Of a stretch of DNA of 64,000 nt, positions 1,308-38,400 are shown piece after piece. The stretch is from a virus. Taxonomy: Duplodnaviria; Heunggongvirae; Uroviricota; Caudoviricetes. The DNA is taken from positions 1 through 64,000 of IMG/VR virus record IMGVR_UViG_3300042569_003232; one strand, written 5' to 3'. Under the pieces are notes generated by a model, which did not search any database, was not told the DNA's origin, and saw only the letters and a list, made by a program, of their open reading frames with translations. Within the stretch, counting starts at the first letter, position 1; each line of letters begins with the position of its first letter. Both the position numbers and the translations under genes were made by a program.

Positions 1308-1631
1308 TTAATTAAAATTTACATTTGTATTGGCATAATCTAATGTTAAAAGATTAGTGTCTTTTACTGTAAAATGGTTAACCTTTTTAAATTGAGGAAT
1401 TAAGGTCGATTTACCATGGAAGACAATTTCATCACAAGGAAAAGGAGGAGATGATGCTCTCAAATACAATACGCCATCTCTTATATCAACGGGTTCATGT
1501 ATTTCGAATTTTTTATCTGAATTAATATAAAGCAGACCTTTTATTTTTGTTACTCCTTTTCTAAGGAACCTTTCAAGAAAAGGTTCCTTTTTATCATTTA
1601 TATTATATTCAAACGTTAAAATTGTATTCAT
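1308..1631 (-). CDS. hypothetical protein
   Basis: 107-aa ORF directly downstream of 1635..1925; no recognisable motif. Confidence 0.4.
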   Translation of the reverse strand: MNTILTFEYNINDKKEPFLERFLRKGVTKIKGLLYINSDKKFEIHEPVDIRDGVLYLRASSPPFPCDEIVFHGKSTLIPQFKKVNHFTVKDTNLLTLDYANTNVNFN

Positions 1632-3043: not shown

Positions 3044-3895
3044 TTACTCAACATTTATCCCGATAATTTTCGTTGATAAAATGTTATTTTCAACTCCTTG
3101 AGCAATTACTCCATTTGCATAAAATGGTTTATCTAAATTCCAATTCTTTTCACGAACTGCAACCAGCATATTTTTTGTTCGATATGTTGTTGAACGAAGA
3201 ATTGGGCGAGAATGTTTTGACAACCAATCCTGTCGAGTAACCAAGTATTGTTCAACCCATTTTTTCTCATCACCTCCGCTAACTGGAGGGAGTTCCGAAA
3301 ATCTTTTTCTTAAAAAAATTGGAACACTTCCAGAATGAATATATGAATCATAAATTACTAATGCACTAAGCGGAAGAGTAAAACCGTTTTTCTTAAAAAA
3401 ATCTATTGCAGGATTCCAATATTGTTCATCAAAAAATTCATCCTGTGCTTCCTTCATAATTGAATCACTTCCTGCACTCTTTAGTTTATTAATGAATGCA
3501 ACGTCATTTACCAACGATGTTGTTCCAATTTTTGAAAGATAAGGCCGAAAGAATGTTGAGTATTGACCATTTTTTTCAACATATTTAAGAATTAATTTTC
3601 TTAAATTTCCCCATTCTGTTGTTTGGCTTTTGCCGTAAGTTATTTGACGAATATCTTTTGGTCCATCCGAAAAAATAGAAACTTTGCTGTAATCTCCTTT
3701 TAAACTTCCAGTTTCAAAAACATTTAAAATGCTTTGAATTTTACCCTTTTTAGAAAGAACTAGATTTTTTTCTACAACTTTTGAGGGTTCTGGTGTAACA
3801 GGTTTAGATGATTCGTTTGTAGTCGGAGTTTCAATTTTCTTTGAAGAAAATGAATTCAGAATATTACTTAAAAAATTTAAAAAATTAGTAAACAT
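3044..3895 (-). CDS. glycoside hydrolase family 46 (chitosanase-like) protein
   Basis: Blocks VFETGS..DYSKV, SDGPKDIRQITYGKSQTTEWGN, AQDEFFDEQYWNPA, LVIYDSYIHSGS and DEKKWVEQYLVTRQDWL align with Bacillus Csn (IFENGTTEIQYGY, DDGRGYTCG, AQDKVNDHLYYQPA, AVMYDTVIQHGDG, DEKKWLNKFLDVRYDDL). A 50-aa Thr/Pro/Ser-rich N-terminal linker precedes them. Confidence 0.75.
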   Translation of the reverse strand: MFTNFLNFLSNILNSFSSKKIETPTTNESSKPVTPEPSKVVEKNLVLSKKGKIQSILNVFETGSLKGDYSKVSIFSDGPKDIRQITYGKSQTTEWGNLRKLILKYVEKNGQYSTFFRPYLSKIGTTSLVNDVAFINKLKSAGSDSIMKEAQDEFFDEQYWNPAIDFFKKNGFTLPLSALVIYDSYIHSGSVPIFLRKRFSELPPVSGGDEKKWVEQYLVTRQDWLSKHSRPILRSTTYRTKNMLVAVREKNWNLDKPFYANGVIAQGVENNILSTKIIGINVE

Positions 3896-3925: not shown

Positions 3926-4156
3926 TTATCTTGCATCAAGATCAATTATATGATGAAAATAGTCCAATGAAAGCATTTGATTTAAAAATACTGTGCGTGG
4001 GTTGAATTGATCATGTTGGAACTGGTACGAATTAACATCATTGTAATTTTGCATGCCAAATCTTTTAATATCTGATGTATGACTCGTTCTAAATATACAA
4101 ACTATACAAACTTTATCATAAACAGAACGGTACACTGTAAATGTTAAATTTTTCAT
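3926..4156 (-). CDS. small protein, tag-only member of the HLLTLDY-tag family
   Basis: C-terminus QMLSLDYFHH; first of a tandem array of 9. Confidence 0.5.
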   Translation of the reverse strand: MKNLTFTVYRSVYDKVCIVCIFRTSHTSDIKRFGMQNYNDVNSYQFQHDQFNPRTVFLNQMLSLDYFHHIIDLDAR

Positions 4157-4161
4157 AAAAA

Positions 4162-4401
4162 TTAAAAAACTTGAATTGGTTTCCCGACAAAATCCAATGA
4201 CAATAAATTTTTAAATTGTAAAAATTCATCATCGCATATCCTTACATTATTTTCTATAAAAAAATTGTTTATTATTAGACTATGGTGTATATTTTTACGA
4301 TCTATACTGTATGCAAAAGGATCTATACAACTATATAAGATTGCGCTCACTGTTGAGCGATCAGTCAACATATTAAATGAGATATTGCAATAAAATTTCA
4401 T
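4162..4401 (-). CDS. small protein, tag-only member of the HLLTLDY-tag family
   Basis: C-terminus FKNLLSLDFVGKPIQVF. Confidence 0.5.
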   Translation of the reverse strand: MKFYCNISFNMLTDRSTVSAILYSCIDPFAYSIDRKNIHHSLIINNFFIENNVRICDDEFLQFKNLLSLDFVGKPIQVF

Positions 4402-4628
4402 ACTAGTTTATATTTTTTAGAAAAATAATCAACGGTTAATAAATTCTTATAAATTAAAACATCTTCAGATAGTTTATCAGAAATTATTGTATGATTAACA
4501 TATGTTATTTCATTTTTCCATACTGGTCTATATGATCTTGAAACATGCAACTGCTCTTTTGCAGTACCTTCATTAATTTTCGTAAAGAATAATTTATAAA
4601 TCGAACTTTGCATAAGGAAAATAATCAA
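4398..4628 (-). CDS. small protein, tag-only member of the HLLTLDY-tag family
   Basis: C-terminus YKNLLTVDYFSKKYKLV. The listed start is a TTG inside the previous gene's tag codons; the likely true start is the internal ATG (MQSS) near 4613. Confidence 0.5.
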   Translation of the reverse strand: MIIFLMQSSIYKLFFTKINEGTAKEQLHVSRSYRPVWKNEITYVNHTIISDKLSEDVLIYKNLLTVDYFSKKYKLV

Positions 4629-4854
4629 TGGTTAATAAGTTTGAATACTCTACACGATGAACACTAAATTTAGAACATTCACCATTAAACCAAGTTTCTC
4701 TGCTACAAATACTATCTAATTTACAGAATCCAAAACAACATAATATTATATCCACTCTTTTAAAAGAAATAAAATATCTAATATTTAACCAATTATAGAG
4801 TCTGAGTTTCTTTGAATTCATGTTAGAAAATTCTGGCTTTACAAAAATAATCAA
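4594..4854 (-). CDS. small protein, tag-only member of the HLLTLDY-tag family
   Basis: C-terminus YSNLLTIDYFPYAKFDL; likely start at the internal ATG (MNSKK) near 4821. Confidence 0.5.
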   Translation of the reverse strand: MIIFVKPEFSNMNSKKLRLYNWLNIRYFISFKRVDIILCCFGFCKLDSICSRETWFNGECSKFSVHRVEYSNLLTIDYFPYAKFDL

Positions 4855-5035
4855 GAGTTAATAAATTTCGGTATCTTGGCATTAGAATTTTCTCTGGATT
4901 TTTATCGCTTATAAAGGTGTCTTTTATATATTCCGCAACCATACCAATATAATAGTCTTCTCTATTATATCTATGAAAAGCCATCCTTGTTCCACTGTCA
5001 TCGTAATGAACATATAAATCGTATAAAAATATCAT
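4823..5035 (-). CDS. small protein, tag-only member of the HLLTLDY-tag family
   Basis: C-terminus YRNLLTLDYFCKARIF; ATG start. Confidence 0.5.
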   Translation of the reverse strand: MIFLYDLYVHYDDSGTRMAFHRYNREDYYIGMVAEYIKDTFISDKNPEKILMPRYRNLLTLDYFCKARIF

Positions 5036-5086
5036 ATCTCTACACTGAATATATGAGCATTACAGAAAAAATCAAGAGTTAATAAA

Positions 5087-5293
5087 TTATGAAATATAAT
5101 CTAATGTGATTAGATTTGCAAACCTATATACTTGAGTTTGTCCCACTTCTGGGAAATTTAATATAACACTATTGTTTATTCTAGTAAGCGAAAAAACATG
5201 TATATTTTCCACATTATAATTCCGATGAACACCATATACTGACGTAAATAATGGATAAATAGCTACATTATACACATTATTAGATTTCGACAT
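5087..5293 (-). CDS. small protein, tag-only member of the HLLTLDY-tag family
   Basis: C-terminus RFANLITLDYIS; ATG start. Confidence 0.5.
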   Translation of the reverse strand: MSKSNNVYNVAIYPLFTSVYGVHRNYNVENIHVFSLTRINNSVILNFPEVGQTQVYRFANLITLDYIS

Positions 5294-5552
5294 ATAAAAT
5301 ATAATCTGATGTAATTAAATTACTAAACATAACAAGTTGTCTTTCTTTAACATCTGGTAGATTTAATACCGAGCAAACATCTGTATTTTTTAGTAAACAT
5401 GTTAATTCTTTGTCTGGATCTATATTATTGTATGTAAATAATATATCATCCGATATAAAAAAATCGTTAAACGTTTTCGGCATAAGGTAGATAATCCAAA
5501 GAAAGAGTATTACAAAAATAACTACTATCAAATTTTCCCATATTTTTTCCAC
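5280..5552 (-). CDS. small protein, tag-only member of the HLLTLDY-tag family
   Basis: C-terminus MFSNLITSDYILYVEI. The listed start is GTG; an internal ATG (MPKTF) near 5483 would avoid the 86-nt overlap. Confidence 0.45.
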   Translation of the reverse strand: MEKIWENLIVVIFVILFLWIIYLMPKTFNDFFISDDILFTYNNIDPDKELTCLLKNTDVCSVLNLPDVKERQLVMFSNLITSDYILYVEI

Positions 5553-5721
5553 AATTTACAAAACAATATTTCTTGTCATTAGATTTCGTATAAAAATCAG
5601 GATCACTGAATGCACAAGTCAACGAATAGCTATCTCTACCCAAATAAAGCATAGGTTTTCCGAATACAATATTAAAATAAAGTGTAAAAGTTTTATTCAT
5701 ATGTCTGAATCTTTTATACAT
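5467..5721 (-). CDS. small protein, tag-only member of the HLLTLDY-tag family
   Basis: C-terminus FCNTLSLDYLPYAENV; Cys-rich. Confidence 0.5.
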   Translation of the reverse strand: MYKRFRHMNKTFTLYFNIVFGKPMLYLGRDSYSLTCAFSDPDFYTKSNDKKYCFVNCGKNMGKFDSSYFCNTLSLDYLPYAENV

Positions 5722-5897
5722 GAAATATAATCTAGTGAAATCAAATGTCTAAAACTTTCCGAAGAACTGTTTGTAACTTCTAAACAACTAGTTTCTTGAT
5801 AATATCCCGTCATCCGAAATACATATAAAGTAGATTCATTATTAGATAATGTACGAGCTTTACCATAAGTCTTAAAAAAAAGAATTTTATTCATCAT
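5697..5897 (-). CDS. small protein, tag-only member of the HLLTLDY-tag family
   Basis: C-terminus FRHLISLDYISCIKDSDI; ATG-ATG start. Confidence 0.5.
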   Translation of the reverse strand: MMNKILFFKTYGKARTLSNNESTLYVFRMTGYYQETSCLEVTNSSSESFRHLISLDYISCIKDSDI

Positions 5898-6078
5898 TAA
5901 TATTCATCTTATCATCTTTCCGACGAAGCCGAATCTTTGCAAGTTTTCTGGAAAATTTCTTAAAAATATTAAGATTAGAAATATCGCGGCAGCAATAGCA
6001 ACCGTATTTTCCACGTTTGTTTTTGCTGCCGTTTTTACAAAGTTTTTTCTGTTCTTGTCGAAAAATATCCATAATCAA
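5887..6078 (-). CDS. hypothetical basic Cys-containing small protein
   Basis: 63 aa, Lys/Arg-rich with CYCC. Confidence 0.3.
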   Translation of the reverse strand: MIMDIFRQEQKKLCKNGSKNKRGKYGCYCCRDISNLNIFKKFSRKLAKIRLRRKDDKMNINDE

Positions 6079-6476
6079 TTAAAGTCAATAACTGTCTCAA
6101 ACCTATTTTGCATTTTATTCAAAGTATGTTGAGGAACATTATGGATGTTACCATAGTTTTCTGTCAAAGTCAAGATTTCAAAAGGAATTTTGAGATTATT
6201 AGCAATAGTAATATATGGCTCAATTTCCTTTTTTGTTGTAAACGTGTTGCTGACAACAACTGTATACCCTGCGCTCAGTGCAAAAAAGGTGGCAGTCTGG
6301 CACCACTTGTGAGCATCCGGGACATGAGAAGGGACAAAAACATACTCACCATCCCGCTCAAAATACATATCTGCCTCATAATGTTTATATGTAGGATTTT
6401 CAGCAAGAATCTGTTTCGCTTTAGTGGTTTTTCCACTACCGGGCAGACCACGAATAATAATAAGTTTGTTGTTCAT
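6075..6476 (-). CDS. P-loop kinase, polynucleotide 5'-kinase-like (kinase domain only)
   Basis: KLIIIRGLPGSGKTT Walker A and a VVVSNTF block resemble the T4 Pnk kinase domain (KIILTIGCPGSGKST...VIISDTN). No HAD phosphatase domain is attached. Confidence 0.5.
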   Translation of the reverse strand: MNNKLIIIRGLPGSGKTTKAKQILAENPTYKHYEADMYFERDGEYVFVPSHVPDAHKWCQTATFFALSAGYTVVVSNTFTTKKEIEPYITIANNLKIPFEILTLTENYGNIHNVPQHTLNKMQNRFETVIDFN

Positions 6477-10074: not shown

Positions 10075-10302
10075 TTATTTCAAAGATTTTGAGAAAAAGG
10101 CTAGTAGTAACATTCCTCCAAAGAATGCACAAAAACCCAAAACAAAAATTCCAAGTAAACCGTAAACAAGAATTACTGGAAAGAATACCCAAAACCATGA
10201 AATGTTGATTAGCCCAGTTAGTTTCAGAATTGCCAATAAAATGGTAATTGGAACTACTGGAATTGTGATTTTAATTGTATCTTTCATTTTAGACAGTTGC
10301 AA
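10075..10302 (-). CDS. small membrane protein
   Basis: 75 aa with two hydrophobic helices. Confidence 0.4.
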   Translation of the reverse strand: MQLSKMKDTIKITIPVVPITILLAILKLTGLINISWFWVFFPVILVYGLLGIFVLGFCAFFGGMLLLAFFSKSLK

Positions 10303-10843
10303 TCATTGCTTTATGTACTTCAATCCATTGAAGACAATTTCGAACTCTCATCAAAATAGTTCCTAACATGTTTTTACCACCTTTTTGAATATCCACTCCC
10401 CAAATTACATCGCCCCACCAATTTGTTTCTTCCAGAAATTTATTACCAGTAAGAAGAAGTTGACTTCGCAAATCTTCATTTCTAAAAAACTTATCCATTA
10501 AAATCTCAAACATAACTAAATATTTGATTTCTTCCCAATCACTTCGCAATTTTACGGTGCTTCCCCATTTTTTAACTTCTTTACAAGTCATTTTTTGAAC
10601 TTTTTCCAGTAATTCTGGACTTTGATCTTCTTTTTTTAGTTTTGCATACATGTATGCATGTTCAGAACTTGGAAACCTGTTTCCCAAATAAACTACATCG
10701 CATTTGTGGAAATTAGAAAGATATTTATATTCTCCGAAAAATCCCTTAATGTTATTTTCATTCCAAGTAATAATTTCTTTATAACCACCTTTTTCGTAAG
10801 GTTTACCGTTTAATTCTGCTTCGTCAAATAGTTTCATAGTCAC
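10289..10843 (-). CDS. NADAR (YbiA-like, DUF1768) domain protein
   Basis: FFGEYKYLSNFH...FPSSEHAYMYAKL matches the YbiA/NADAR core (F.....LSNF...F.S.EH.YQ..K). The likely ATG is at 10837; the listed start is GTG. Confidence 0.7.
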   Translation of the reverse strand: MTMKLFDEAELNGKPYEKGGYKEIITWNENNIKGFFGEYKYLSNFHKCDVVYLGNRFPSSEHAYMYAKLKKEDQSPELLEKVQKMTCKEVKKWGSTVKLRSDWEEIKYLVMFEILMDKFFRNEDLRSQLLLTGNKFLEETNWWGDVIWGVDIQKGGKNMLGTILMRVRNCLQWIEVHKAMIATV

Positions 10844-10870
10844 TTATATCAGATTTTCAGAGTTTGTCAA
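10843..10870 (-). promoter_or_regulatory. sigma70-like promoter (TTGACA-N16-TATAAG) ending 5 nt before the ATG
   Basis: Minus strand reads TTGACAaactctgaaaatctgaTATAAGtgactATG, immediately after the stop of the upstream MBL gene. Confidence 0.45.
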
Positions 10871-10873
10871 GAG

Positions 10874-11632
10874 TTAGAAGTGGAATTCTTGGTTTTTATC
10901 CACAAATCCTGCAAATCCATATTTTTCATAAGCAAGGGGTCTTTCAGAATAATGCATCATCCACATTTTCTTTTTCATTTCTTCCGGAAGTTTCTCCAAA
11001 TCAGAAATATGACTATGTACTTTACTCTTGAATCCAATTAATGTTTCACAATCATGAAACACAACGTCTGCATCCATTATTGCTTTTTTATTAATGTTTG
11101 CACTATCACTGCTCCAATAAATTTTTGTATTATTGATTTTAAACTTTAATCCATATGCATCTTTATTTCCAAAAGAACAAACAATGTGTGAATTTCTAAT
11201 CAATTCAAAAACCACATTTTCAAATTCAAAAGCACTACATGCGTGACATTCGGCAAAATTAGACAAATGCAGCACTTCGTTTCTGTAAATTCCCATGCTA
11301 GGTTTCAAACTATCCCAAATATCAGTTATAACAAGAGGATGAGCATACAATTTCGGTTTAATTACATTGCCATTTTTATCCAATTTTGGTTCAAAATAAC
11401 GAGAAAAAAACAAACTCTCAAAGAAACAATGATCTGCATGTAAATGTGAAATATACACTGCATCAATATCCTTATATGTTTTTTTCCATTCTTCTCGCCA
11501 AATGAAATTACTGGCAACCCCAAAATCAATTAAAAGATTTTTACCATTTATTGTTAATAGTGCATTTGAATTGCCTTCCTTTAAACTTGCAAATGCTCCT
11601 GATCTTCCCAAGAATTTTAATGTAGCATTCAT
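10874..11632 (-). CDS. metallo-beta-lactamase-fold hydrolase
   Basis: HLHADH motif (HxHxDH) with downstream His and Asp ligand positions. Confidence 0.6.
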   Translation of the reverse strand: MNATLKFLGRSGAFASLKEGNSNALLTINGKNLLIDFGVASNFIWREEWKKTYKDIDAVYISHLHADHCFFESLFFSRYFEPKLDKNGNVIKPKLYAHPLVITDIWDSLKPSMGIYRNEVLHLSNFAECHACSAFEFENVVFELIRNSHIVCSFGNKDAYGLKFKINNTKIYWSSDSANINKKAIMDADVVFHDCETLIGFKSKVHSHISDLEKLPEEMKKKMWMMHYSERPLAYEKYGFAGFVDKNQEFHF

Positions 11633-19971: not shown

Positions 19972-20181
19972 TCATGCTTTTCGATTCCGCCGATAAAGTA
20001 GTGCCAATCCTGCAATTGTCAACAGAACAAATGGGGATTTTGGTTCTGGAACAACTTGGGGATAACACTGCCAAGTTGTTCCATTATAGTGGCAAACACC
20101 ATCTGGTCCACTGCCTCCAAGAGTTGATAGTTGAGCATGAGAAGTAAAAGTTAGTAGGATGAGGATAAGGATAGTTTTCAT
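19972..20181 (-). CDS. small secreted protein with a PEP-CTERM-like sorting signal
   Basis: N-terminal signal peptide (MKTILILILLTFTSHA), short two-Cys mature region, then VPEP, a hydrophobic segment and RRNRKA at the C-terminus. Confidence 0.5.
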   Translation of the reverse strand: MKTILILILLTFTSHAQLSTLGGSGPDGVCHYNGTTWQCYPQVVPEPKSPFVLLTIAGLALLYRRNRKA

Positions 20182-22104: not shown

Positions 22105-22440
22105 TCAGAAAATGTGTCCCAATGTGTGGTTTGGTATATAATCCAAGGACAGTAAATAATTATTACGGAATGATACATGATATACATTTTTAGGAAAATA
22201 AATTAATGCAGTTAATTGATTGCCCTCACACCAGAAAGCATTTCCAACAGTTTTTGGTGAATACTTTAAGTTAATTAACAAATTGTGATTGCAATCAAAA
22301 CTTCCTCTAACAAATTCCAGTGTTCCTTTTAAACTAGTTAATTTATTAATACTGCAATCGAAATATCCAACATTTTTAGTTGTAATAATTTCTAATTTTC
22401 TTAAATTACGTTTTTGAAGGTAATAATCTATTGCACTCAT
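22105..22440 (-). CDS. LTSL-repeat family protein (about 3 repeats), C-terminal HLLTLDY-type tag
   Basis: FDCSINKLTSLKG / FDCNHNLLINLK repeats; C-terminus YLLSLDYIPNH. Confidence 0.6.
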   Translation of the reverse strand: MSAIDYYLQKRNLRKLEIITTKNVGYFDCSINKLTSLKGTLEFVRGSFDCNHNLLINLKYSPKTVGNAFWCEGNQLTALIYFPKNVYHVSFRNNYLLSLDYIPNHTLGHIF

Positions 22441-22443
22441 ATA

Positions 22444-23091
22444 TTATATTTTACGATTTGATGGGACGTAATCCATTGTTAATAAATGATTTTTTTTATA
22501 ATTTATATTATATGGATTTTTAGCAGAATAAATCAAACTCGTCAATTTATTAATATAACAAGAAAAATAACAAGAAGACTCTCCACCAATTCTTTTCGGT
22601 CCTCCTTTCAAAGTAATTAATTTATTATTCATACAAAAAAAACACCCATAAATATTTTTCGGACTTCCTTTCAAGTCAGTTAGTTCATTACTATAACAAC
22701 GAAAATTCCCATTTATAGTTTTCGGTGCTCCTTTTAAATTAATTAATTTATTATCACTGCAAGTGAAATGTCTGCCAACAGTTTCTGGACTTCCTTCTAA
22801 AGATGTTAATTCATTATTATCACAATAAAAATCCGCCCCGACTTCTTTCGGACCTCCTTTTAACGATTTTAATCTATTATATCTGCAATCAAAATCTCCA
22901 TCAATACGGGCTGGCGATCCTTCTAAACTAGTCAATCTGTTACTAAAACAATTATAGTCTTTTTTTACAAATTTTGGACCTCCTTTTAAGCTAATTAATT
23001 TATTAAAACTACCATCAAAACTTCCATTTATAATTTCTGGAATATTTTCTAACTTTTTTAAATTTTTATTATTAATATAAATGCTGCTCAT
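22444..23091 (-). CDS. LTSL-repeat family protein (about 8 repeats), C-terminal HLLTLDY-type tag
   Basis: N-terminal NLKKLENIPEII cap; repeats F-x-C-x-x-N-x-L-T-S-L-[KE]-G-x-P; C-terminus HLLTMDYVPSNRKI. Confidence 0.65.
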   Translation of the reverse strand: MSSIYINNKNLKKLENIPEIINGSFDGSFNKLISLKGGPKFVKKDYNCFSNRLTSLEGSPARIDGDFDCRYNRLKSLKGGPKEVGADFYCDNNELTSLEGSPETVGRHFTCSDNKLINLKGAPKTINGNFRCYSNELTDLKGSPKNIYGCFFCMNNKLITLKGGPKRIGGESSCYFSCYINKLTSLIYSAKNPYNINYKKNHLLTMDYVPSNRKI

Positions 23092-23094
23092 ATA

Positions 23095-23343
23095 TTATAG
23101 TTTATGATTTGATGGGACGTAATCCAATGTTAATAAATGATTTCTAGAATACAATAAAAGAATCATTTCTTTAGGACAATATAAAATGCTAGTTAATCTA
23201 TTATGGAAACATCCTAAATAACCCATAACAACTTTTGGAGAACCTTTAAGAGAAGTTATTTCATTGTAGTCACAATGTAACCCTTCAAAAAGCACTCTAG
23301 GAATATTTTCCAATTTTTTTAAATTTTTATAATAAAGATTCAT
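23095..23343 (-). CDS. LTSL-repeat family protein (about 2 repeats), C-terminal tag
   Basis: NLKKLENIP cap; C-terminus HLLTLDYVPSNHKL. Confidence 0.6.
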   Translation of the reverse strand: MNLYYKNLKKLENIPRVLFEGLHCDYNEITSLKGSPKVVMGYLGCFHNRLTSILYCPKEMILLLYSRNHLLTLDYVPSNHKL

Positions 23344-23347
23344 AAAT

Positions 23348-23752
23348 TTAAATTACTAAACTTGTTATGTAATCCATTGTCAAAAAATTATTTTCTCTGG
23401 TCCAGTATAACGCTACCGAATTCTTAGGAGAGTATATCATGCTAGTCAATTCATTTTCTACACAATGAAAAAAACATCCAACAACTCTGGGAGCACCGTG
23501 TAAAGTAGTTAATTTATTACAACTACAATTAAAACTTCTTCCTATTGTTCGTGGACTTCCTTTTAAATCGGTCAATTTATTATGAATGCAATAAAAAGAA
23601 CCCCAAACGCTTTTCGGACCTCCCTCTAAAGACGTTAAATGATTCTCGCTGCAATCAAAAATTCCATCTACATGTTCTGGAATATTCTCTAACTTCTTTA
23701 GATTTTTATTACTAATATAAACATCATTCATAAATTTTACAATTTGGAACAT
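23348..23752 (-). CDS. LTSL-repeat family protein (about 4 repeats), C-terminal tag
   Basis: NLKKLENIPEHV cap; C-terminus FLTMDYITSLVI. Confidence 0.6.
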   Translation of the reverse strand: MFQIVKFMNDVYISNKNLKKLENIPEHVDGIFDCSENHLTSLEGGPKSVWGSFYCIHNKLTDLKGSPRTIGRSFNCSCNKLTTLHGAPRVVGCFFHCVENELTSMIYSPKNSVALYWTRENNFLTMDYITSLVI

Positions 23753-24128
23753 AATCAGTTGTTAATAAATGATTTTCAGTAAAAACCACGGTACGCATAG
23801 TTTTAGGCGAGTATAAAAAATCAGTTAATTTATTACCTCTAATAAAAAACCCGCCTCCTATAAATCTTGGACCTTCTTTTAAAGTAGTTATTTTATTATG
23901 TTTACAAACAAAAAATTCACCAATTCTTTTTGGGCATCCCTTTAAACTAGTCAAATAATTCCAACTACAATTCACATATCCATCTACAATTTCTGGTGAT
24001 TCTGGAAAAATTTTATACTTTTCATTAAAAATCCAAATACATTTCATATTTTTACATATTTCTACAATAATTTGGAAAATAATCTCTTGATAAAAGATGA
24101 TTTTGTGCCGACCAAAAATAATGCGCAT
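23724..24128 (-). CDS. LTSL-repeat family protein (about 3 repeats), C-terminal tag
   Basis: C-terminus HLLTTDYVPNCKIYE. Confidence 0.55.
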   Translation of the reverse strand: MRIIFGRHKIIFYQEIIFQIIVEICKNMKCIWIFNEKYKIFPESPEIVDGYVNCSWNYLTSLKGCPKRIGEFFVCKHNKITTLKEGPRFIGGGFFIRGNKLTDFLYSPKTMRTVVFTENHLLTTDYVPNCKIYE

Positions 24129-24492
24129 TTTTAGGAGAATATAACAAACTAGTTAACTTATTTTCGTCACAATAAAATGTGTCTCCGACGAATTTAGGTG
24201 CTCCTTTTAAGCTAATTAGATTATTCATACTGCAAACGAAATCTATCCCCGTACTTTCTGGTCCTCCTAATAAATTGGTTAAAAAATTACTCCTGCAATT
24301 AAACATCCCCTTTACAATTTTCGGTGAACCATTTAAATTAGTTAAATGGTTATCCCGACAGTGAAAATTTCCATATATAATTTCTGGAATATTTTCCAAT
24401 TTTGTTAGACTTCTATTATCAAGGGTCAAATTACTCATCTTCGTTCTCTTGTGGCTTATGCACATCCGTTTGCATAGCATACTTTTCTCCAA
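24052..24492 (-). CDS. LTSL-repeat family protein (about 4 repeats), C-terminal tag
   Basis: SLTKLENIPEII cap; C-terminus HLLSRDYFPNY. The likely start is the internal Met (MSNLTL) near 24438. Confidence 0.55.
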   Translation of the reverse strand: MEKSMLCKRMCISHKRTKMSNLTLDNRSLTKLENIPEIIYGNFHCRDNHLTNLNGSPKIVKGMFNCRSNFLTNLLGGPESTGIDFVCSMNNLISLKGAPKFVGDTFYCDENKLTSLLYSPKNAHYFWSAQNHLLSRDYFPNYCRNM

Positions 24493-25594: not shown

Positions 25595-26635
25595 TTATGC
25601 AATTCCAATGATATTAATCTTACGATCATTGAAACGGAAATTAATGGCATCTTCCAAAGTTTTACATCTAGGATCAACTGCTTCAACATGCCAAACTCTT
25701 GTGGTTTGATTCAGCATCTTCAAGTGGGGAGCATAATCAACTCCGGGGAACAAGCAATTCATATCATGTAGTTCGTATTCGCTATTCGTCCACCATTCAT
25801 TGTCATAGTTTTCGTAGGTATCCAGTTTAGATCCGAATGAAAGCATTCGCTCAATTCCGACCTTTCGGATAAATTCCATACGAACATCGGCATTCGTAAT
25901 TTCAGTATAGCGATTAATGTCGATTTGACTGGAATGAGTGTTTGCCAACCAATCAGGAACAACAACACCGTTAATACAATAGTAATTCAAATCTCCATAT
26001 CCAGCATAAGAAATAGCAGGACCGCTATCATTATGGAATTGTTTATTCGCATTAAATTTCAATGTAGTGACTTTTTGGGAAGCAATTGCTACTTTATCCA
26101 TAAAGTAAACTGCACCCAATTGTGACATTTCCTTCCAGATAAGATACTTTTCCCGATATTCACCCAAATCGTCATTACAAAGATCCATGTAAAAATCAAA
26201 GAATGTATGGCTCAAAGAGTCAAGGCTACCTCCGAACAATGGATAGAAAAACTTGCCAATTTGAACCTTTTCAGTTTTATCGAAATTGTCAATTTCTTCA
26301 ACAAAAGGAACAGCTTCGAAATAATTTTTAATGTTTTCCTTAATACTGTTAATTGGATAACCTGCTTCAATAAAATGGGAAGCAACCCAGCCTTCAAGTG
26401 GATTATCTACAATAACTACCGGAGTTTTCGGAACTTCCAAAAAGATTTCTTGGAATTTATGAATTGTATCCACAGTCTGATCATAATCAAGACGATTTGT
26501 GGACAAAGCATTCTTAAATGCTTCAGCGAAAATGCTTGGAACTTTTTCGGTATTAATGTCGCTTAGTTTCATAGATTGGTTTGGTGATGGGTCTATTATA
26601 CACGGGGAAAAAGGGTTGTCAACGATTTTCTGCAT
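25595..26635 (-). CDS. hypothetical protein (346 aa)
   Basis: Long ORF with normal composition; no motif recognised. Confidence 0.5.
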   Translation of the reverse strand: MQKIVDNPFSPCIIDPSPNQSMKLSDINTEKVPSIFAEAFKNALSTNRLDYDQTVDTIHKFQEIFLEVPKTPVVIVDNPLEGWVASHFIEAGYPINSIKENIKNYFEAVPFVEEIDNFDKTEKVQIGKFFYPLFGGSLDSLSHTFFDFYMDLCNDDLGEYREKYLIWKEMSQLGAVYFMDKVAIASQKVTTLKFNANKQFHNDSGPAISYAGYGDLNYYCINGVVVPDWLANTHSSQIDINRYTEITNADVRMEFIRKVGIERMLSFGSKLDTYENYDNEWWTNSEYELHDMNCLFPGVDYAPHLKMLNQTTRVWHVEAVDPRCKTLEDAINFRFNDRKINIIGIA

Positions 26636-26897
26636 TTCTTCTGCTAAATTTCTCGTAAAATATGGAACCGTGATTAGGAACGTAATCCAAAGAAATTAAA
26701 ACATTAAATTCTGCTGAAAACTTGTGGGATGTTTTTGGAGAATATAATAAAGTTGTTAGTTTATTTCCCTGACAATAGTAAAACTGTGTATGTACAAATT
26801 TTAAACCTCCTTTTAAACTAGTTAAATTAAAATAACTATAATAGCATGTTCTACTAACATTCTTTACCGAAACGGTTATTATATTCATAAATATCAA
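26619..26897 (-). CDS. LTSL-repeat family protein (about 2 repeats), C-terminal tag
   Basis: C-terminus VLISLDYVPNHG. Confidence 0.55.
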   Translation of the reverse strand: MIFMNIITVSVKNVSRTCYYSYFNLTSLKGGLKFVHTQFYYCQGNKLTTLLYSPKTSHKFSAEFNVLISLDYVPNHGSIFYEKFSRRNAENR

Positions 26898-27232
26898 AAG
26901 TTGAAATTGTAGTACAAAATTATCGAATTCTCAGGAACATAATCCAAAGAAATTAAAACATTAAATTCTGTTGAAATATACCCTTTTATTTTTGGACAAT
27001 ATAAAAAAGTGGTCAATTTATTATTATGACAATTAAAATTTCTTTTCACGAATTTCAAAGAACCTTTTAAAGTAACTAATTCATTATAAGAACAATCAAA
27101 CCGACCGTGGATAAATTCTGGACTTCCCTTTAGATTACTTAAATAATTACCGCTGCAATCAAAAGAACCTTCCACTATTTTTGGAAAATTCTGTAATTCA
27201 GATAATCCTTTGTTAAAAACATCAACACTCAT
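26894..27232 (-). CDS. LTSL-repeat family protein (about 3 repeats), C-terminal tag
   Basis: LSELQNFPKIV cap; C-terminus VLISLDYVPENS. Confidence 0.6.
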   Translation of the reverse strand: MSVDVFNKGLSELQNFPKIVEGSFDCSGNYLSNLKGSPEFIHGRFDCSYNELVTLKGSLKFVKRNFNCHNNKLTTFLYCPKIKGYISTEFNVLISLDYVPENSIILYYNFNF

Positions 27233-27239
27233 GTTTAAA

Positions 27240-27500
27240 TTAATAGCTTATAAAATTATTTGAATAATCCAGAGTCAAAAAATTATTCCAGAATATAATC
27301 ATGTTAGCCTGTCTTTTAAAAATTATATTTATTTTCGTAACTTTAGGAGAAAACAAAGGACTTGTTAAATGGTTTTCCACCGCATATATATTATGTGTAT
27401 ATTTTGGGCATCCTTTTAAACTAGTCAACAGTTTTCTCTCACAATAGAATATTCTATCTACATTTTCAGGATAATTGTAAAATGTCAAATCGGTTTTCAT
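27240..27500 (-). CDS. LTSL-repeat family protein (about 2 repeats), C-terminal tag
   Basis: C-terminus FLTLDYSNNFISY. Confidence 0.5.
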   Translation of the reverse strand: MKTDLTFYNYPENVDRIFYCERKLLTSLKGCPKYTHNIYAVENHLTSPLFSPKVTKINIIFKRQANMIIFWNNFLTLDYSNNFISY

Positions 27501-27511
27501 ATTTTATACAG

Positions 27512-27907
27512 CTATTTAACAAGAGGAATATAATCCAATGAAAGAAAATGGTTGTTGTGATCATATTTTCTAGTTCCGAGCAATTTAGGAAAAAATAATA
27601 AATTAGTTAACCGATTATCATTAATAGCTAAACGCCATCCTACAAATTTTGGTCCTCCCTTTAAAGTAATCAAATTATTTCTAGCACATTCAAAATCTAA
27701 TCCAACTTCTTCTGGACCTCCAATTAAATCTGTTAGATAATTTAGATGGCACCAATAACTATTAACAACAATTTTCGGACCTCCTTTTAGACTCTTTAGA
27801 GAATTAGAACTACAATCAAAACTCCCCTCAATTTTAAAATATTCATTGTGTAATTCTTTTAAACCGAGTAACGATACATTATAACTTCCATCTTTAACTT
27901 TTTTCAT
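27512..27907 (-). CDS. LTSL-repeat family protein (about 4 repeats), C-terminal tag
   Basis: C-terminus HFLSLDYIPLVK. Confidence 0.6.
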   Translation of the reverse strand: MKKVKDGSYNVSLLGLKELHNEYFKIEGSFDCSSNSLKSLKGGPKIVVNSYWCHLNYLTDLIGGPEEVGLDFECARNNLITLKGGPKFVGWRLAINDNRLTNLLFFPKLLGTRKYDHNNHFLSLDYIPLVK

Positions 27908-29341: not shown

Positions 29342-29363
29342 TCAAATATTTACTGTAAAGTAA

Positions 29364-30891: not shown

Positions 30892-31197
30892 TCAATAGTA
30901 ATCCAAAGTTAACAAATGATTTTTTTGAAAATCACGCAATCTTTTTATTTTCGGACTATATATTAAACTAGTTAAATAGTTACCAAATATCTCAAATGCC
31001 CAACCTACAATTTCTGGTCCGCCTCTTAAACTAATTAATTTATTATCAAAACATAAATAATGTTGATTTACAATTTTTGGTCCATTTTGTAAATCCACTA
31101 ATTTATTGTTATTACATATAAAACTTCCGTATATAATTTCTGGAAATTTATCCAAAACAGTTAGCTGTTTGTAGCTGCAATTAAAATGTTTCGTCAT
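30892..31197 (-). CDS. LTSL-repeat family protein (about 3 repeats), C-terminal tag
   Basis: C-terminus HLLTLDYY. Confidence 0.6.
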   Translation of the reverse strand: MTKHFNCSYKQLTVLDKFPEIIYGSFICNNNKLVDLQNGPKIVNQHYLCFDNKLISLRGGPEIVGWAFEIFGNYLTSLIYSPKIKRLRDFQKNHLLTLDYY

Positions 31198-31495
31198 GTC
31201 TTGGAAAATAATCTAAAGTTAGTAAATGGTTCATCGTACAAAATGGTATAACCTGCGATTTTGGAGTATATAATAAACTAGTCAAATTATTTCTATTACA
31301 ATAAATCCGTTTATCAATTTTTTTTGAAATACCTTTTAAACTAGTCAATTTATTATAACTGCACGAAAAATATCCTTTTATATGTTTTGGCGATCCATCT
31401 AATGTAATCAAATTATTATGATAACAAATAAGACTTTCCTCCATAATTTCTGGCAAAAAGGGAAGTTTTGTTAAATTTTTATCAGAAATATGCAT
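31181..31495 (-). CDS. LTSL-repeat family protein (about 3 repeats), C-terminal tag
   Basis: NLTKLPFLPEIM cap; C-terminus HLLTLDYFPRHDETF. Confidence 0.6.
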   Translation of the reverse strand: MHISDKNLTKLPFLPEIMEESLICYHNNLITLDGSPKHIKGYFSCSYNKLTSLKGISKKIDKRIYCNRNNLTSLLYTPKSQVIPFCTMNHLLTLDYFPRHDETF

Positions 31496-31498
31496 AAT

Positions 31499-31801
31499 TC
31501 AAAAATAATCCAAAGTTAGTAAATGGTTTTTATAATAACTAAAATTCATATATCTACGTTTTTTAGGAAAATATATTAAAGATGTTAAATAATTGTTAGC
31601 ACAAAAGAACATGTTTTCTACTTTTTTAGGCGATCCTTTTAAACTAATTAATTCGTTGCAATAACACACAAAACCAGTTACGATTTCTGGTCCGCCCTCT
31701 AAAGTTGATAATTTATTATAACCACACAAAAAATATTCCTCTATAATTCTCGGAATTGATAATTTTGTCAAACTGTTTAAATTTTTACCAGAAAGATTCA
31801 T
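31499..31801 (-). CDS. LTSL-repeat family protein (about 3 repeats), C-terminal tag
   Basis: C-terminus HLLTLDYF. Confidence 0.6.
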   Translation of the reverse strand: MNLSGKNLNSLTKLSIPRIIEEYFLCGYNKLSTLEGGPEIVTGFVCYCNELISLKGSPKKVENMFFCANNYLTSLIYFPKKRRYMNFSYYKNHLLTLDYF

Positions 31802-31915
31802 TTTATATACAAGGAATATAATCCTTTGTTAGTAAACTGTTAGTAAAATAAAAACCTATAATTATTTTAGGTGCAGGTAACAGGCAAGTTCTTGAATATG
31901 TATTAGAGAGGCGCA

Positions 31916-32230
31916 TTATTCGTTATAAGAGATATAATCCAAAGTTAATAAAAGATTTTTGAAATAATAAAAGTTGTTGATTATTTTGGGTGCATATAAC
32001 AGACTAGTCAAATTGTTATCAAAACAATCATAAATTCCCGTATGCATAATATTTTTCGGTCCCCCTCGCAATGTGGTTAAATCGTTAGCACTGCAATCGA
32101 AATTTCCAAATACAAATTTCGGTCCTCCTTCTAAATTACGTAATTTATTAAAACCGCAATCAAAATCTCCAATTATAATTTCTGGAATATTTTCCAATTT
32201 TATTAATTTTTTATACCCACTCATATACAT
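31916..32230 (-). CDS. LTSL-repeat family protein (about 3 repeats), C-terminal tag
   Basis: KLIKLENIPEII cap; C-terminus LLLTLDYISYNE. Confidence 0.6.
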   Translation of the reverse strand: MYMSGYKKLIKLENIPEIIIGDFDCGFNKLRNLEGGPKFVFGNFDCSANDLTTLRGGPKNIMHTGIYDCFDNNLTSLLYAPKIINNFYYFKNLLLTLDYISYNE

Positions 32231-34018: not shown

Positions 34019-34342
34019 ATGAAATTTGATCGTTCTTTTAAAGAATTGGAAAAATTACCAAGATCACCAAAAATTATACATGGAAGTTTCTTTTTGTGTG
34101 GTTATAATTCGTCAACTAATTTGGAAAATTCTCCCCAAACGGTAGAAGAAAATTTTCACTGTTATCATAATAGATTAACTAGTTTATATGGAATATCCAG
34201 ATTTATTGGAGGTCACTTATATGGGGAATTTAATCGTTTGTCTAATTTAATATATGGTCCAAAAATTATAACTTCTATATCTATTAAATACAATCACTTA
34301 TTATCTTTGGATTATTCTAACACAAGAAATTTATGGAAATAA
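34019..34342 (+). CDS. LTSL-repeat family protein (about 3 repeats), C-terminal tag
   Basis: ELEKLPRSPKII cap; C-terminus HLLSLDYSNTRN. Confidence 0.6.
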   Translation: MKFDRSFKELEKLPRSPKIIHGSFFLCGYNSSTNLENSPQTVEENFHCYHNRLTSLYGISRFIGGHLYGEFNRLSNLIYGPKIITSISIKYNHLLSLDYSNTRNLWK

Positions 34343-34836
34343 ATTTATCCGGTAAAAGATTACCAAAATTACCAGAACTTCCTGAAATTATAAATGGCGA
34401 TCTTTGGTGTCATAATAATAAATTAACTACATTAAAAGGATCGCCGAAAATCGTAAATGGAAGTTTCTATTGCAGAAGAAACCGATTAACTAGTTTAGAA
34501 AAAGGGCCAAAATTTGTCGGAACCCATTTCTGGTGTAGCGTGAACAGGTTGACTAGTTTAAAAGGAGGTCCAGAAAATGTGGGTGACGAATTTCATTGTA
34601 GTGATAACGATTTAACTAATTTAGAAGGATCACCAAAGAGTGTTGGTAATTTTTGGTGCGAAGAAAATGATTTAATTACTTTATATGGCGCACCAAAAAG
34701 AGTAAATGGATGTTTTATGTGTAATCGTAATAAGATAACAAGTCTAATTTATACACCAAAAAATCCTTTTGAGTTATCGTACATTGCTAACTGTTTATTA
34801 TCTCTTGATTATATCCCGAATAGTGTTCATATATAA
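34333..34836 (+). CDS. LTSL-repeat family protein (about 6 repeats), C-terminal tag
   Basis: RLPKLPELPEII cap; repeats NxLT[ST]LxGxPxxV; C-terminus CLLSLDYIPNSVHI. Confidence 0.65.
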   Translation: MEINLSGKRLPKLPELPEIINGDLWCHNNKLTTLKGSPKIVNGSFYCRRNRLTSLEKGPKFVGTHFWCSVNRLTSLKGGPENVGDEFHCSDNDLTNLEGSPKSVGNFWCEENDLITLYGAPKRVNGCFMCNRNKITSLIYTPKNPFELSYIANCLLSLDYIPNSVHI

Positions 34837-34859
34837 ACCGTATTTATTTAGTTACCATT

Positions 34860-35120
34860 ATGAATATCGACCTTTCTTGTAAAGATTTACCAGAACTACC
34901 ATCTTTTCCAAAAATTTTAGATGGTTATTTTTGGTGTGCCGACAATCTTTTAACTAGCCTAAAAGGATGTCCAAAAATTATAAATTCTAGTTTTGATTGC
35001 TCTTATAATAAACTAGTTTATTTACTAGAAACCCCAAAAATAGTAATGGGAAGAAGTTGGTATTCTTATAATCATTTACTGTCAAGGGATTATATTCCAT
35101 TTAATAAACATCTAGTATGA
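34860..35120 (+). CDS. LTSL-repeat family protein (about 2 repeats), C-terminal tag
   Basis: C-terminus HLLSRDYIPFNKHLV. Confidence 0.55.
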   Translation: MNIDLSCKDLPELPSFPKILDGYFWCADNLLTSLKGCPKIINSSFDCSYNKLVYLLETPKIVMGRSWYSYNHLLSRDYIPFNKHLV

Positions 35121-35440
35121 ATATTGATTATTCTTTTAAAAAATTAACAAAACTGCCAGAATTACCAGATTTTGTAAAAGGAATGGCAGTTTTCAGTAAT
35201 AATCAAATAACTAGCTTACAAGGATCACCTAGAATTGTACTTGGTTATTTTGACTGTTTCAGAAATAACTTATTTACTCTAAAAGGAGGTCCGAAAATTG
35301 TAAAAGGGAATTTTAATTGCGGTTGGAATAACTTGAATAGTTTATTATATAGTCCAAAATTATCAAGAAATGTATTTTGTTATTATAATAATCTGATTTC
35401 TTTTGATTACGTTTCAAGTGTAAAAAATTTCCAAATATGA
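35117..35440 (+). CDS. LTSL-repeat family protein (about 3 repeats), C-terminal tag
   Basis: KLTKLPELPDFV cap; C-terminus NLISFDYVSSVKNFQI. Confidence 0.6.
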   Translation: MNIDYSFKKLTKLPELPDFVKGMAVFSNNQITSLQGSPRIVLGYFDCFRNNLFTLKGGPKIVKGNFNCGWNNLNSLLYSPKLSRNVFCYYNNLISFDYVSSVKNFQI

Positions 35441-35817
35441 TAAATATAACATATTTAAAAAATAATGGAATTAAAATCTTTCATGATAACGGCAATAGTT
35501 TGATTTGTATACTTAGAGGTTTGACTAGTTTAGAAGATTGCCCTAAAAATATAAATGATCACGTTAATATTAAACACAATAAATTAACTAATTTAAAGGG
35601 ATCGCCACAAACTATAAGAGGAGGGTATAATTGTAGTTGCAATATTTTGTTTACTTTAAAAGGAGGTCCAAAAAATGTCGGAGGAGCATTTTATTGTTCG
35701 AGAAATAGACTAACCAGTTTGTTATATTTTCCTAAAGAACCACTTTGGACCTCATATCATCATAATAACTTGCTGTCAGTTGATTATATTCCAATTAATC
35801 TGGAAAACATATTATGA
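35437..35817 (+). CDS. LTSL-repeat family protein (about 3-4 repeats), C-terminal tag
   Basis: C-terminus NLLSVDYIPINLENIL. Confidence 0.6.
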   Translation: MINITYLKNNGIKIFHDNGNSLICILRGLTSLEDCPKNINDHVNIKHNKLTNLKGSPQTIRGGYNCSCNILFTLKGGPKNVGGAFYCSRNRLTSLLYFPKEPLWTSYHHNNLLSVDYIPINLENIL

Positions 35818-36197
35818 ATGTTTATTACAATAACCAAGGTTTAAAGAAAATACCAGTTTTTCCTAAAATTTTTGATGGCAATTTTGAAGTTGCCATCAAT
35901 CAGTTGACTAGCTTAAAATGTTCCCCAGAAGTTGTCAGAGGACACTTCGACTGTGCTGCTAATAATTTATCGGATTTAAAAGGAGCACCAAAATTTGTTA
36001 AACGTTATTTTAATTGTCAATTTAACCAATTAACTAATTTAAAAGGAGCACCGAAATTTGTAGGGAGACTTTTTTGGTGTTCCTTTAATAAATTAACTAA
36101 TTTGATATATTCTCCTAAAACAACACTTCGGGTAATGTGCAACAGTAATTCGTTATTAACAATGGATTATATCTCCGCTCAAAAAGATGAACTTTAA
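35814..36197 (+). CDS. LTSL-repeat family protein (about 4 repeats), C-terminal tag
   Basis: C-terminus SLLTMDYISAQKDEL. Confidence 0.6.
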   Translation: MNVYYNNQGLKKIPVFPKIFDGNFEVAINQLTSLKCSPEVVRGHFDCAANNLSDLKGAPKFVKRYFNCQFNQLTNLKGAPKFVGRLFWCSFNKLTNLIYSPKTTLRVMCNSNSLLTMDYISAQKDEL

Positions 36198-36771
36198 ACT
36201 AACATTAGAAAATTTAGAGGAACTTCCCAATCTTCCAGAAGTAATTCTTGGAAATTTTGATTGTAATTATACTGATTTAATTACACTTAAAAATATTCCA
36301 AAAATTATAGAAGGAGGTTTCTTTTGTAGTTATACTGGAATATCATCATTAGAAAATGGTCCAAAAAGTGTTGGAGGAAGTTTTATCTGTAATTATAATA
36401 GCTTAATTAATTTAAAAGGAGGTCCAAAAAGAATTGGAGGACATTTGCTTTGTAATGGCAATAAATTAACTACTTTAGAAGGAATGCCGCAAAGTATTGG
36501 AGGAGGATTTGAATGTAGCAATAATAAGTTAGTTAATCTAATTGGAGCACCGAAAATAGTACATGGTTTTTTCAATTGTGAATTTAACTATTTAGTTACC
36601 TTAAAAGGTTCACCAAAAATTATAGATGGTTATTTTCATATTTACCGAAACAAATTAAATAGTTTTTTATTTGGACCAAAAATTTTTAAAGATGATTTTT
36701 TCCCAACTTTTGGCAAAGGTAATCACTTGATTTCTATGGACTATTGCTCTAATGTAAACTTCGACACATGA
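36187..36771 (+). CDS. LTSL-repeat family protein (about 7 repeats), C-terminal tag
   Basis: LENLEELPNLPEVI cap; Gly-rich repeat variant (GGPKRIGG); C-terminus HLISMDYCSNVNFDT. Confidence 0.6.
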   Translation: MNFKLTLENLEELPNLPEVILGNFDCNYTDLITLKNIPKIIEGGFFCSYTGISSLENGPKSVGGSFICNYNSLINLKGGPKRIGGHLLCNGNKLTTLEGMPQSIGGGFECSNNKLVNLIGAPKIVHGFFNCEFNYLVTLKGSPKIIDGYFHIYRNKLNSFLFGPKIFKDDFFPTFGKGNHLISMDYCSNVNFDT

Positions 36772-38381: not shown

Positions 38382-38400
38382 AAAACCCTCTTGACAAGAG

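Follow-up and report, generated by a model that had tools for sequence, protein, structure and literature searches.

The window analysed here, a 64,000-nucleotide stretch (positions 1 to 64,000) of the IMG/VR virus record IMGVR_UViG_3300042569_003232, belongs to a large AT-rich phage genome (approx. 31% guanine plus cytosine, GC) and contains, at 3926-5897, nine small genes whose products end in a common short motif of the type N-L-L-T-L-D-Y. The same motif ends 21 leucine-rich repeat (LRR) proteins encoded elsewhere in the window, and in these proteins, which make up two thirds of the carriers, it is a truncated, specialised last repeat unit, referred to below as the stub. The reading given a probability of roughly 55% is that the LRR multigene family gave rise to the nine small genes as stub-only offshoots, that these occupy a hyperplastic early region close to anti-defence genes, and that they have kept the stub as a shared interaction or capping element. 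What is new here is a family of tiny, hypervariable genes that carries the terminal LRR half-unit only, at a locus that turns over between relatives.

The original prediction, made from the sequence alone, had described nine tandem minus-strand open reading frames (ORFs) bearing a C-terminal tag, which also ends proteins with LTSL repeats and occurs on about 30 proteins in all. The array is real: ORF listing and a six-frame motif scan revealed nine consecutive minus-strand ORFs of 66-79 amino acids that tile 3926-5897, all of which end in x-N-L-[LI]-[TS]-x-D-[YF] and 2-13 further residues. The repeat proteins bearing the tag were likewise found (21 LRR proteins, at 22-37 kb), and the number of carriers is approx. 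31; a tenth small carrier beyond the array (g0) and an orphan tail copy were also found. In Markov simulations that preserved dinucleotide content, 0.80 ± 0.77 tails (maximum, 3) were expected within 22 codons of a stop, whereas 29 were observed. Similarly, the array region contains nine open frames of 60 or more codons, covering 98% of it, compared with 0.75 frames and 8% coverage expected by simulation. The features of the array are listed below, with each tail given up to its stop codon.

g1, 5697..5897, minus strand: 66 residues; tail HLISLDYISCIKDSDI; public protein P0003
g2, 5467..5700, minus strand: 77 residues from the ATG at 5700, with an alternative ATG at 5721; tail NTLSLDYLPYAENV; public protein P0001
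g3, 5280..5483, minus strand: 67 residues from an internal ATG; tail NLITSDYILYVEI; public protein P0006
g4, 5087..5293, minus strand: 68 residues; tail NLITLDYIS
orphan tail copy, 5030..5100, minus strand: motif at 5068-5088, NLLTLDFFCNAHIFSVEI; no gene body
g5, 4823..5035, minus strand: 70 residues; tail NLLTLDYFCKARIF; public protein P0004, found in at least 55 assembly blocks
g6, 4594..4821, minus strand: 75 residues from the ATG at 4821; tail NLLTIDYFPYAKFDL; open in strain contig L003
g7, 4398..4613, minus strand: 71 residues from the ATG at 4613; tail NLLTVDYFSKKYKLV
g8, 4162..4401, minus strand: 79 residues; tail NLLSLDFVGKPIQVF; strain variant P0009
g9, 3926..4156, minus strand: 76 residues; tail QMLSLDYFHHIIDLDAR; strain variant P0008
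g0, tenth carrier beyond the array, 1308..1631, minus strand: 107 residues; tail NLLTLDYANTNVNFN

The genes are tightly packed, and starts fall within the tail of the preceding gene, as in g3, whose start codon lies within the g2 tail; for example, a tail ending DYLPYAENV overlaps the start MPKTF, and one ending DYILYVEI overlaps MSKSNN. Such overlap may place an extra constraint on the residues that follow D-Y. The true starts are internal ATGs rather than TTG or GTG codons, as had been suspected and as the public gene calls P0001 and P0006 indicate. The orphan tail has just four open codons upstream and is identical to the tail of g5 at 27 of 29 nucleotides; thus, g5 is flanked on both sides by direct repeats. 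The nine proteins have unrelated bodies, as had been proposed. All-against-all BLAST detected no significant mutual similarity, with two exceptions: g3 and g4 are paralogues, sharing a 76-nucleotide repeat (72% identity) over the last approx. 25 codons of g3, and the bodies of g5 and g7 match weakly. An N-terminal pattern, M-x-x-L-T-F, occurs in 9 of 31 carriers and in 4 of 127 other ORFs; it is only a hint, because it was picked after the data had been seen.

The nature of the tail is clearest in the LRR (or 'LTSL') proteins, which are encoded in four clusters and end in L[LI]YSPK-x10-N-H-L-L-T-L-D-Y-[IV]-P.

LRR cluster 1, 22105..24492, minus strand: six tandem genes with 21-residue Cys-ladder units, ending in LLYSPK-x10-NHLLTxDY[IVF]P
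LRR cluster 2, 26619..27907, minus strand: four genes, some with degenerate repeats (e.g., 27240-27500, 86 residues)
LRR cluster 3, 30892..32230, minus strand: four genes, including the modelled 31181-31495
LRR cluster 4, 34019..36771, plus strand: seven genes on the opposite strand, with the tail as in the other clusters

A fifth cluster is present in a related strain past the right end of the window (L008, 461-1420); its tails contain NHLLTLDYTRSK, NNLLGLDYIPQL, and NNILSLDYATNG, and it adjoins an eIF-1a-like gene and an ATP_bind_3 gene.

The repeat unit is 21 residues long, N-x-L-T-S-L-x-G-x-P-K-x-V-x-G-x-F-x-C-x-x (consensus NKLTSLKGGPKFVGGHFYCS), and each protein has one to eight of them. 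From the 21 proteins, 62 units were extracted by regular expression, and a clean unit profile was made from the 44 internal units only. The penultimate unit is 20 residues long (N-x-L-T-S-L-[LI]-Y-S-P-K-x10) and is followed by N-H-L-L-T-L-D-Y-[IV]-P and approx. six further residues. When the proteins are split at each N-x-L, the tail is located where the next unit would begin, with N-H-L-L-T-L-D-Y-V-P in the tail corresponding to N-x-L-T-S-L-x-G-x-P at the start of a repeat. In particular, for 15 of 20 LRR proteins, the internal-unit profile aligned with the terminal stub exactly in register, compared with 20 of 432 shuffled controls (4.6%). Moreover, the string S-L-D-[FY]-x-P forms an internal unit in other, unrelated LRR proteins, namely P0169 (NDLITLDYIPKSV), P0146 (LTSLDFLPENIEG, in the longer excerpt LTSLDFLPENIEGTLFC), P0184 (LTSLDYAPREV, in the longer excerpt LTSLDYAPREVGG), P0163, and P0175. 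The tail lies in the repeat register and the string is internal elsewhere; the tag therefore belongs to the fold in the LRR proteins.

An AlphaFold2 (AF2) model of the protein encoded at 31181-31495 is an LRR solenoid, with a mean predicted local distance difference test (pLDDT) score of 90.2 and a predicted template modelling score (pTM) of 0.80. Its best Foldseek matches are the LRR domains of IpaH7.8 and SspH1 (TM-score 0.6-0.72; no E-value below 0.1), and the LRR proteins match InlJ and SspH2 in NCBIfam. The repeat family is widespread: 1165 database proteins match at E ≤ 0.001, some of them from Vibrio phage VB_VaC_TDDLMA and from uncultured phages of 640-735 kb. None of the best 120 of these 1165 matches has the L-D-Y ending, and many homologues end in NxLxSLDGIGEVKG instead. 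A motif search across the phage and related genomes had been recommended in the original prediction; when this was carried out as an exhaustive profile search of 1.84 billion protein representatives, L-D-Y-tailed caps came to light solely in this phage and in close relatives of it. The literature on LRR multigene families in phages yielded nothing relevant.

These results bear on the proposal of a C-terminal signal for sorting, packaging, secretion, or processing, independent of any fold, that is read by a phage or host machine such as the capsid, the portal, or a protease (for instance, the S8 subtilase encoded at 56312-57304). Approx. 31 proteins with differing bodies share a tail near the C-terminus, selection acts on its amino acids (see below), nothing else is common to 20 distinct small ORFs in three genomes, and a subtilase gene is indeed present in the window. 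However, the tail of the LRR proteins follows the repeat register, its string recurs internally in other LRR proteins, and the distance from the motif to the C-terminus is ill-suited to it, ranging from 1 to 20 residues among carriers in the window. In a more distant relative (L014, described below), the motif is followed by 13-32 residues; thus, it is not a strict C-terminal signal. Searches of the small proteins against Pfam, PHROGs, NCBIfam, PADLOC, and PDB profiles gave no match, and neither a signal peptide nor a transmembrane segment or known sorting domain was detected in them. Their genes also lie in an early-type block, away from structural genes. A dedicated sorting signal is thus unlikely, and the 'tag' should not be labelled as one in annotations. 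The original prediction had favoured such a signal, or a docking peptide, 'rather than a fold element', and had itself named the placement of the motif within a known globular domain as evidence to the contrary; this is what is found in two thirds of the carriers. For the LRR proteins this wording is incorrect, and for the small proteins it is unproven.

The tail is kept by amino-acid selection and not as DNA, in agreement with the earlier observation that the motif is conserved at the protein level while third codon positions vary. The information content of 32 aligned tails shows codon periodicity, the conserved Leu is encoded by TTA, TTG, CTT, CTA, or CTG, and Thr/Ser by ACN or TCN; in the relative L014, one gene has TCT and the others AGT for the conserved Ser. 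Codon periodicity and the mixed Leu and Ser codons indicate that selection acts on the amino acids. Gene conversion as the cause of the likeness between tails was discarded, as their DNA identity is just 40-73% over 45 nucleotides. The sequence TTGATTAT was also considered as a sigma-70-type promoter and rejected on the basis of codon periodicity and of the frequency of promoter-like sites, which are not enriched (30 versus 26 ± 5.3 expected).

It might still be argued that the conserved element acts as DNA or RNA, for instance as a promoter, as a region for translational coupling or initiation, or as a patch of homology like the PeSL (promoter-early plus stem-loop) elements of T4-type phages, and that the peptide is incidental. 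The next ATG lies 5-35 nucleotides past GATTAT, often within the tail, and the commonest DNA version of the motif contains stop codons in its other two frames. The direct repeats around g5 and the different cassettes that strains carry at conserved junctions would also fit such a role. On the other hand, third positions vary freely, the codons chosen for Leu and Ser are unrelated, the identity between tails is too low for routine homologous exchange, and, in addition to the unremarkable number of promoter-like sites, no recurrent inverted repeat or stem-loop was found at the small-gene junctions. The peptide is, moreover, kept in the opposite-strand LRR genes and in the other clusters. We therefore consider a nucleic-acid function quite improbable.

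Comparison with relatives shows how the locus changes. A megablast search of INPHARED with 12 kb of the window found no match and no close relative. The proteins of the window recur in many freshwater metagenome assemblies, on contigs of up to 135,915 bp, and the phage is present in more than 50 assembly blocks. The related-strain contigs L002-L004, at 3-26% nucleotide divergence, provided six orthologous pairs of small genes, all of which are open across strains (joint p = 5e-4). The ratio of nonsynonymous to synonymous substitution rates (dN/dS) ranges from 0.27 to 1.25: it is 0.27-0.59 for g3 (0.27, versus L002), g7 (0.40), g8 (0.59), and g9, and approx. 1 for g4 and g6. Strain changes are concentrated in the middle of the genes, and the ends are conserved. 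This is seen in g4 (dN/dS approx. 1.0), whose middle is hypervariable and in which 53 nucleotide changes have produced no stop codon (p = 0.03). Larger rearrangements occur as well; in L002, three unrelated small ORFs take the place of the genes upstream of g3, with the junction and tail retained, and a g4-like duplicate follows g4.

The array lies between two conserved borders.

GH46-like (chitosanase/lysozyme-like) gene, 3044..3895, minus strand: conserved downstream border of the variable locus
conserved upstream border, 5887..6476, minus strand: an AAA_33 kinase-like gene (6075-6476) and a gene for a Cys-rich basic protein of 61-63 residues (5887-6078)

The Cys-rich, very basic small protein, which contains GCYCCRD or GCPCCRK and is encoded directly upstream of the array, has a counterpart at 7647-7841 of the relative L013. 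The AAA_33 kinase-like protein ends in FETVIDFN, which is loosely tail-like but out of register and probably due to chance.

More distant relatives were reached via the flanking GH46-like gene (65-67% identity); an IMG/VR search based on the same gene gave none. In L013, both upstream border genes are retained and the AAA_33, Cys-rich, and GH46 genes are directly adjacent, with nothing between them; no motif occurs in the 9.8 kb of this contig. L014 has seven other small ORFs of 45-82 amino acids at this position, each with [LVM]-I-S-x-D-F-[ILV]-P followed by the 13-32 residues mentioned above, and these match the small proteins of the window at the motif only. It also encodes a contig-truncated LRR protein that ends in NNRLISLDFLPVEFRRLYDYYPFK, the same variant as in its small ORFs (L-I-S-L-D-F-I-P). 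In L019, the slot is filled by an LRR gene of 126 codons with the tail LLFSVDFLPLKTAVIIL. Thus, one variable slot upstream of the GH46-like gene contains an LRR gene, stub-only genes, or nothing, depending on the relative. Among the 20 distinct small ORFs of the three genomes, the stub is the sole common part, and its variant appears, as far as the sequences indicate, to be lineage-specific and common to both gene types (LLTLDY versus LISLDF).

The same comparison can be used to assess whether the nine ORFs are functionless debris, i.e., decaying remnants of the 3' ends of dead LRR genes, joined to junk sequence. With 26% GC in the array region, no other 2 kb of the window is as AT-rich, the bodies have no homologues past strain variants, dN/dS is close to 1 for g4 and g6, the orphan tail demonstrates that deletions happen, and L013 has no array at all. 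Nevertheless, every ORF is intact and the ORFs tile the region, the second strain has remained open despite divergence of up to 26%, four genes show reduced dN/dS, and the motif is retained with diverse codons in all 20 small ORFs. Decay is therefore given little credence as an account of the array.

Descent of the small genes from LRR genes has to be judged from the tail module and the shared locus only, as their bodies contain no LRR unit. When the window was scanned with the LRR profile, the best matches outside the LRR proteins were to the small ORFs, whose final 17-35 residues aligned colinearly (E 0.02-2). Alignment of the small-protein tails with the LRR family by hhalign covered 26 columns with a probability of 83%, and in g3 and g4 the spacing between a conserved Pro and the motif is the same as in the LRR cap. 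The internal-unit profile found the small-protein stubs in exact register in 4 of 10 cases, compared with the 20 of 432 controls given above. These observations would fit common descent. Several others weigh against the proposed reading. Only 2 of the 10 small-protein stubs score above the shuffled 95th percentile, and the small proteins have no ladder Asn at position -9, N being found one position later. No LRR unit was detected by the unit profile in the bodies in any of the six reading frames, and the tail alone scores, at approx. 4 bits. An AF2 model of g4, based on an alignment of 13 sequences, has a pLDDT of 43 and no confident fold, and even the model of 31181-31495 is less confident at the stub, with a pLDDT of approx. 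65 at residues 91-100 and of 44 over 101-104. A lone LRR half-unit is unable to fold as a solenoid. Finally, the sharing of one stub variant by both families is based on a single LRR tail in L014.

How the stub might work in proteins without repeats can be outlined as follows. The phage has expanded a family of short Cys-ladder LRR proteins, each member of which ends in a specialised truncated unit. According to the proposed scenario, the small genes would be lineage-restricted members or derivatives that retain this terminal unit, sometimes with approx. 30 residues of the C-terminal module. Their short non-repeat bodies evolve fast, and the array is remodelled by duplication, deletion, and cassette replacement in the slot between the AAA_33 kinase-like and GH46-like genes. 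Amino-acid selection on the stub would reflect its role as the common capping or interaction element of the family. Because a lone stub cannot form a solenoid, it most likely works in the small proteins via intermolecular contact. Through it, each member might contact one surface, either the LRR end of another member or one common partner, and specificity would then come from the variable LRR surface or small body, probably to take over the host or counter its defences.

In the nine small proteins, the stub by itself may serve for docking, and this idea can be put in a stronger form. The stub could be a portable docking peptide, derived from an LRR repeat, that plugs approx. 30 proteins (the 21 LRR binders plus tiny hypervariable proteins whose set changes) into one hub. 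The hub could be the open LRR end of another member, which would give combinatorial heterodimers, or one protein of the phage or host, e.g., the sliding clamp. Three features would be accounted for by a common hub: the stub is the sole conserved part in 20 unrelated small ORFs, it is under amino-acid selection, and its lineage-specific variant is shared by both families within a phage. In this hub form, the idea is rather doubtful.

Another reading holds that the tail is a T4-type sliding-clamp-binding peptide that tethers approx. 30 proteins to the clamp of the phage. In T4, gp43 ends in ASLDFLFG and gp55 in PSLDFLYEAND (both read from the T4 genome), the ligase has a loop with GLDFLFD, and LDFLF is the gp45-interaction motif (PMC6212786). 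In the window, the tail of g8 contains SLDFV, [ST]LDY[FIV] is found in most of the remaining carriers, and a gp44-like clamp loader with a Gp44_lid match is encoded at 61250-62155. However, the T4 core requires three consecutive hydrophobic residues after the Asp (F-L-F), whereas the tails read L-D-[YF]-[FIVL]-[P/S/C/H/G], with P, S, or C usually in the third position, and so do not conform to L-D-F-L-F. In addition, their flanks are not acidic, no clamp gene was recognised within the 64-kb window, and the tail is absent from the DNA ligase, RNase H, and clamp loaders of the window (which does not include the DNA polymerase or the late sigma factor). The LRR register, moreover, accounts for the string without any clamp. 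Clamp binding is thus very unlikely. Three clamp-loader-like AAA+ genes are found in the window, at 37200-40326 (plus strand) and 61250-62155 (minus strand), one of which is strongly gp44-like and two of which are distant. The RNase H/FEN-like protein at 62886-63815 (plus strand) ends in NNDLLSFIRM, a hydrophobic peptide that could be the real clamp-binding tail of this phage.

If the small genes are indeed stub-only offshoots of the LRR family, they would represent a fold element that has been freed from its domain and kept as the sole selected feature of tiny, otherwise unconstrained proteins, which would be one route to short linear motifs and to new small viral genes. Approx. 31 genes of an abundant freshwater phage would then be marked as one functional system. 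Besides the array, the long minus-strand block in which it sits contains genes for tRNAs and for RNA and DNA ligases, as well as one Apyc1-like and one NADAR gene; together with the kinase-like gene, these are among the neighbours of the slot in this early-type block. Since the small genes adjoin candidate counter-defence genes, they are candidates for host-takeover or anti-defence functions themselves. Of these neighbours, the Apyc1-like protein (10874-11632, minus strand) has a metallo-β-lactamase (MBL) fold, a precomputed Pfam match to Anti-Pycsar_Apyc1, and a weak match to cyclic-nucleotide phosphodiesterases, and the NADAR-family protein is encoded at 10289-10837 (minus strand). Both candidate counter-defence genes (10289-11632) lie 4.4-5.7 kb upstream of the array, the end of which is at 5897.

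The window as a whole encodes seven tRNAs, a ribonucleotide reductase, a NAPRTase, ligases, an RNase H, the gp44-like clamp loader, tail-fibre-like proteins, and homing endonucleases. One RNA ligase gene (27976-30197, minus strand) is apparently interrupted by a homing endonuclease: its OB-fold N-terminal domain (PHA02142) is on 29364-30197 and the RNA_ligase catalytic domain on 27976-28608, with a GIY-YIG/NUMOD1 endonuclease gene (28568-29341) between the two pieces. An HNH endonuclease gene (20492-21001, plus strand) lies among tRNA genes of the opposite strand, namely tRNA-Leu (21002-21088) and tRNA-Met (21169-21244). Close to it, an ORF of 69 codons (19972-20181, minus strand) starts in the manner of a signal peptide and ends in a PEP-CTERM-like sequence (VPEPKSPFVLLTIAGLALLYRRNRKA), which is unusual in a phage and may hint at the host; a Pfam search with it gave no match.

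Among known systems, the 21 long proteins are most readily compared with bacterial short LRRs, such as those of IpaH, SspH, and YopM, and with the 21-residue cysteine ladder of InlJ. They share with these the tandem 21-residue units with an F-x-C-x-x-N-x-L core and, as modelled, a solenoid whose best fold matches are the IpaH7.8 and SspH1 LRR domains; tandem units of 20-22 residues with a core of the LxxLxLxxNxL type, a modelled solenoid, and a tail that falls within the repeat unit place them in the LRR superfamily. The nine small proteins do not have the two or more tandem units expected of its members. Unlike IpaH, SspH, and InlJ, the phage proteins consist of LRRs only (82-215 residues), with no effector domain, signal peptide, or anchor. 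They are also encoded in four tandem clusters in one phage and have a lineage-specific truncated end, LLTLDY-x-P, which is the only unit that the small genes keep. The tail differs from the PEP-CTERM and LPXTG signals and from the C-terminal domain of the type IX secretion system in that the motif is not at a fixed extreme C-terminus and is not accompanied by a transmembrane stretch or sorting domain. With the gp45-interaction motif of T4 (gp43, gp55, and DNA ligase), it shares a short [ST]-L-D-[FY]-hydrophobic string near the C-terminus of otherwise unrelated proteins; it differs in the missing third hydrophobic residue and acidic context, in its absence from the replisome proteins of the window, and in the LRR periodicity that explains the string.

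The locus itself resembles the hyperplastic regions of T4-type phages, in which, as Arbiol et al. 2010 are said to have described, small early ORFs are shuffled between PeSL elements. In both cases, small orphan ORFs are packed between conserved genes, their content varies among close relatives, and short conserved sequences mark the junctions. In contrast to PeSL elements, however, the junction element described here is coding and selected as a peptide, and no promoter or stem-loop signature was found in it. Large viruses also have fast-evolving tandem gene families, such as the ankyrin, LRR, and FNIP expansions of giant viruses and the 'accordion' arrays of poxviruses. The phage family is like these in its lineage-specific expansion of tandem paralogues, in the gain and loss of copies, and in its presumed role in interactions with the host, and unlike them in that one of its branches would have dispensed with the repeats and consist of proteins that carry the terminal unit only.

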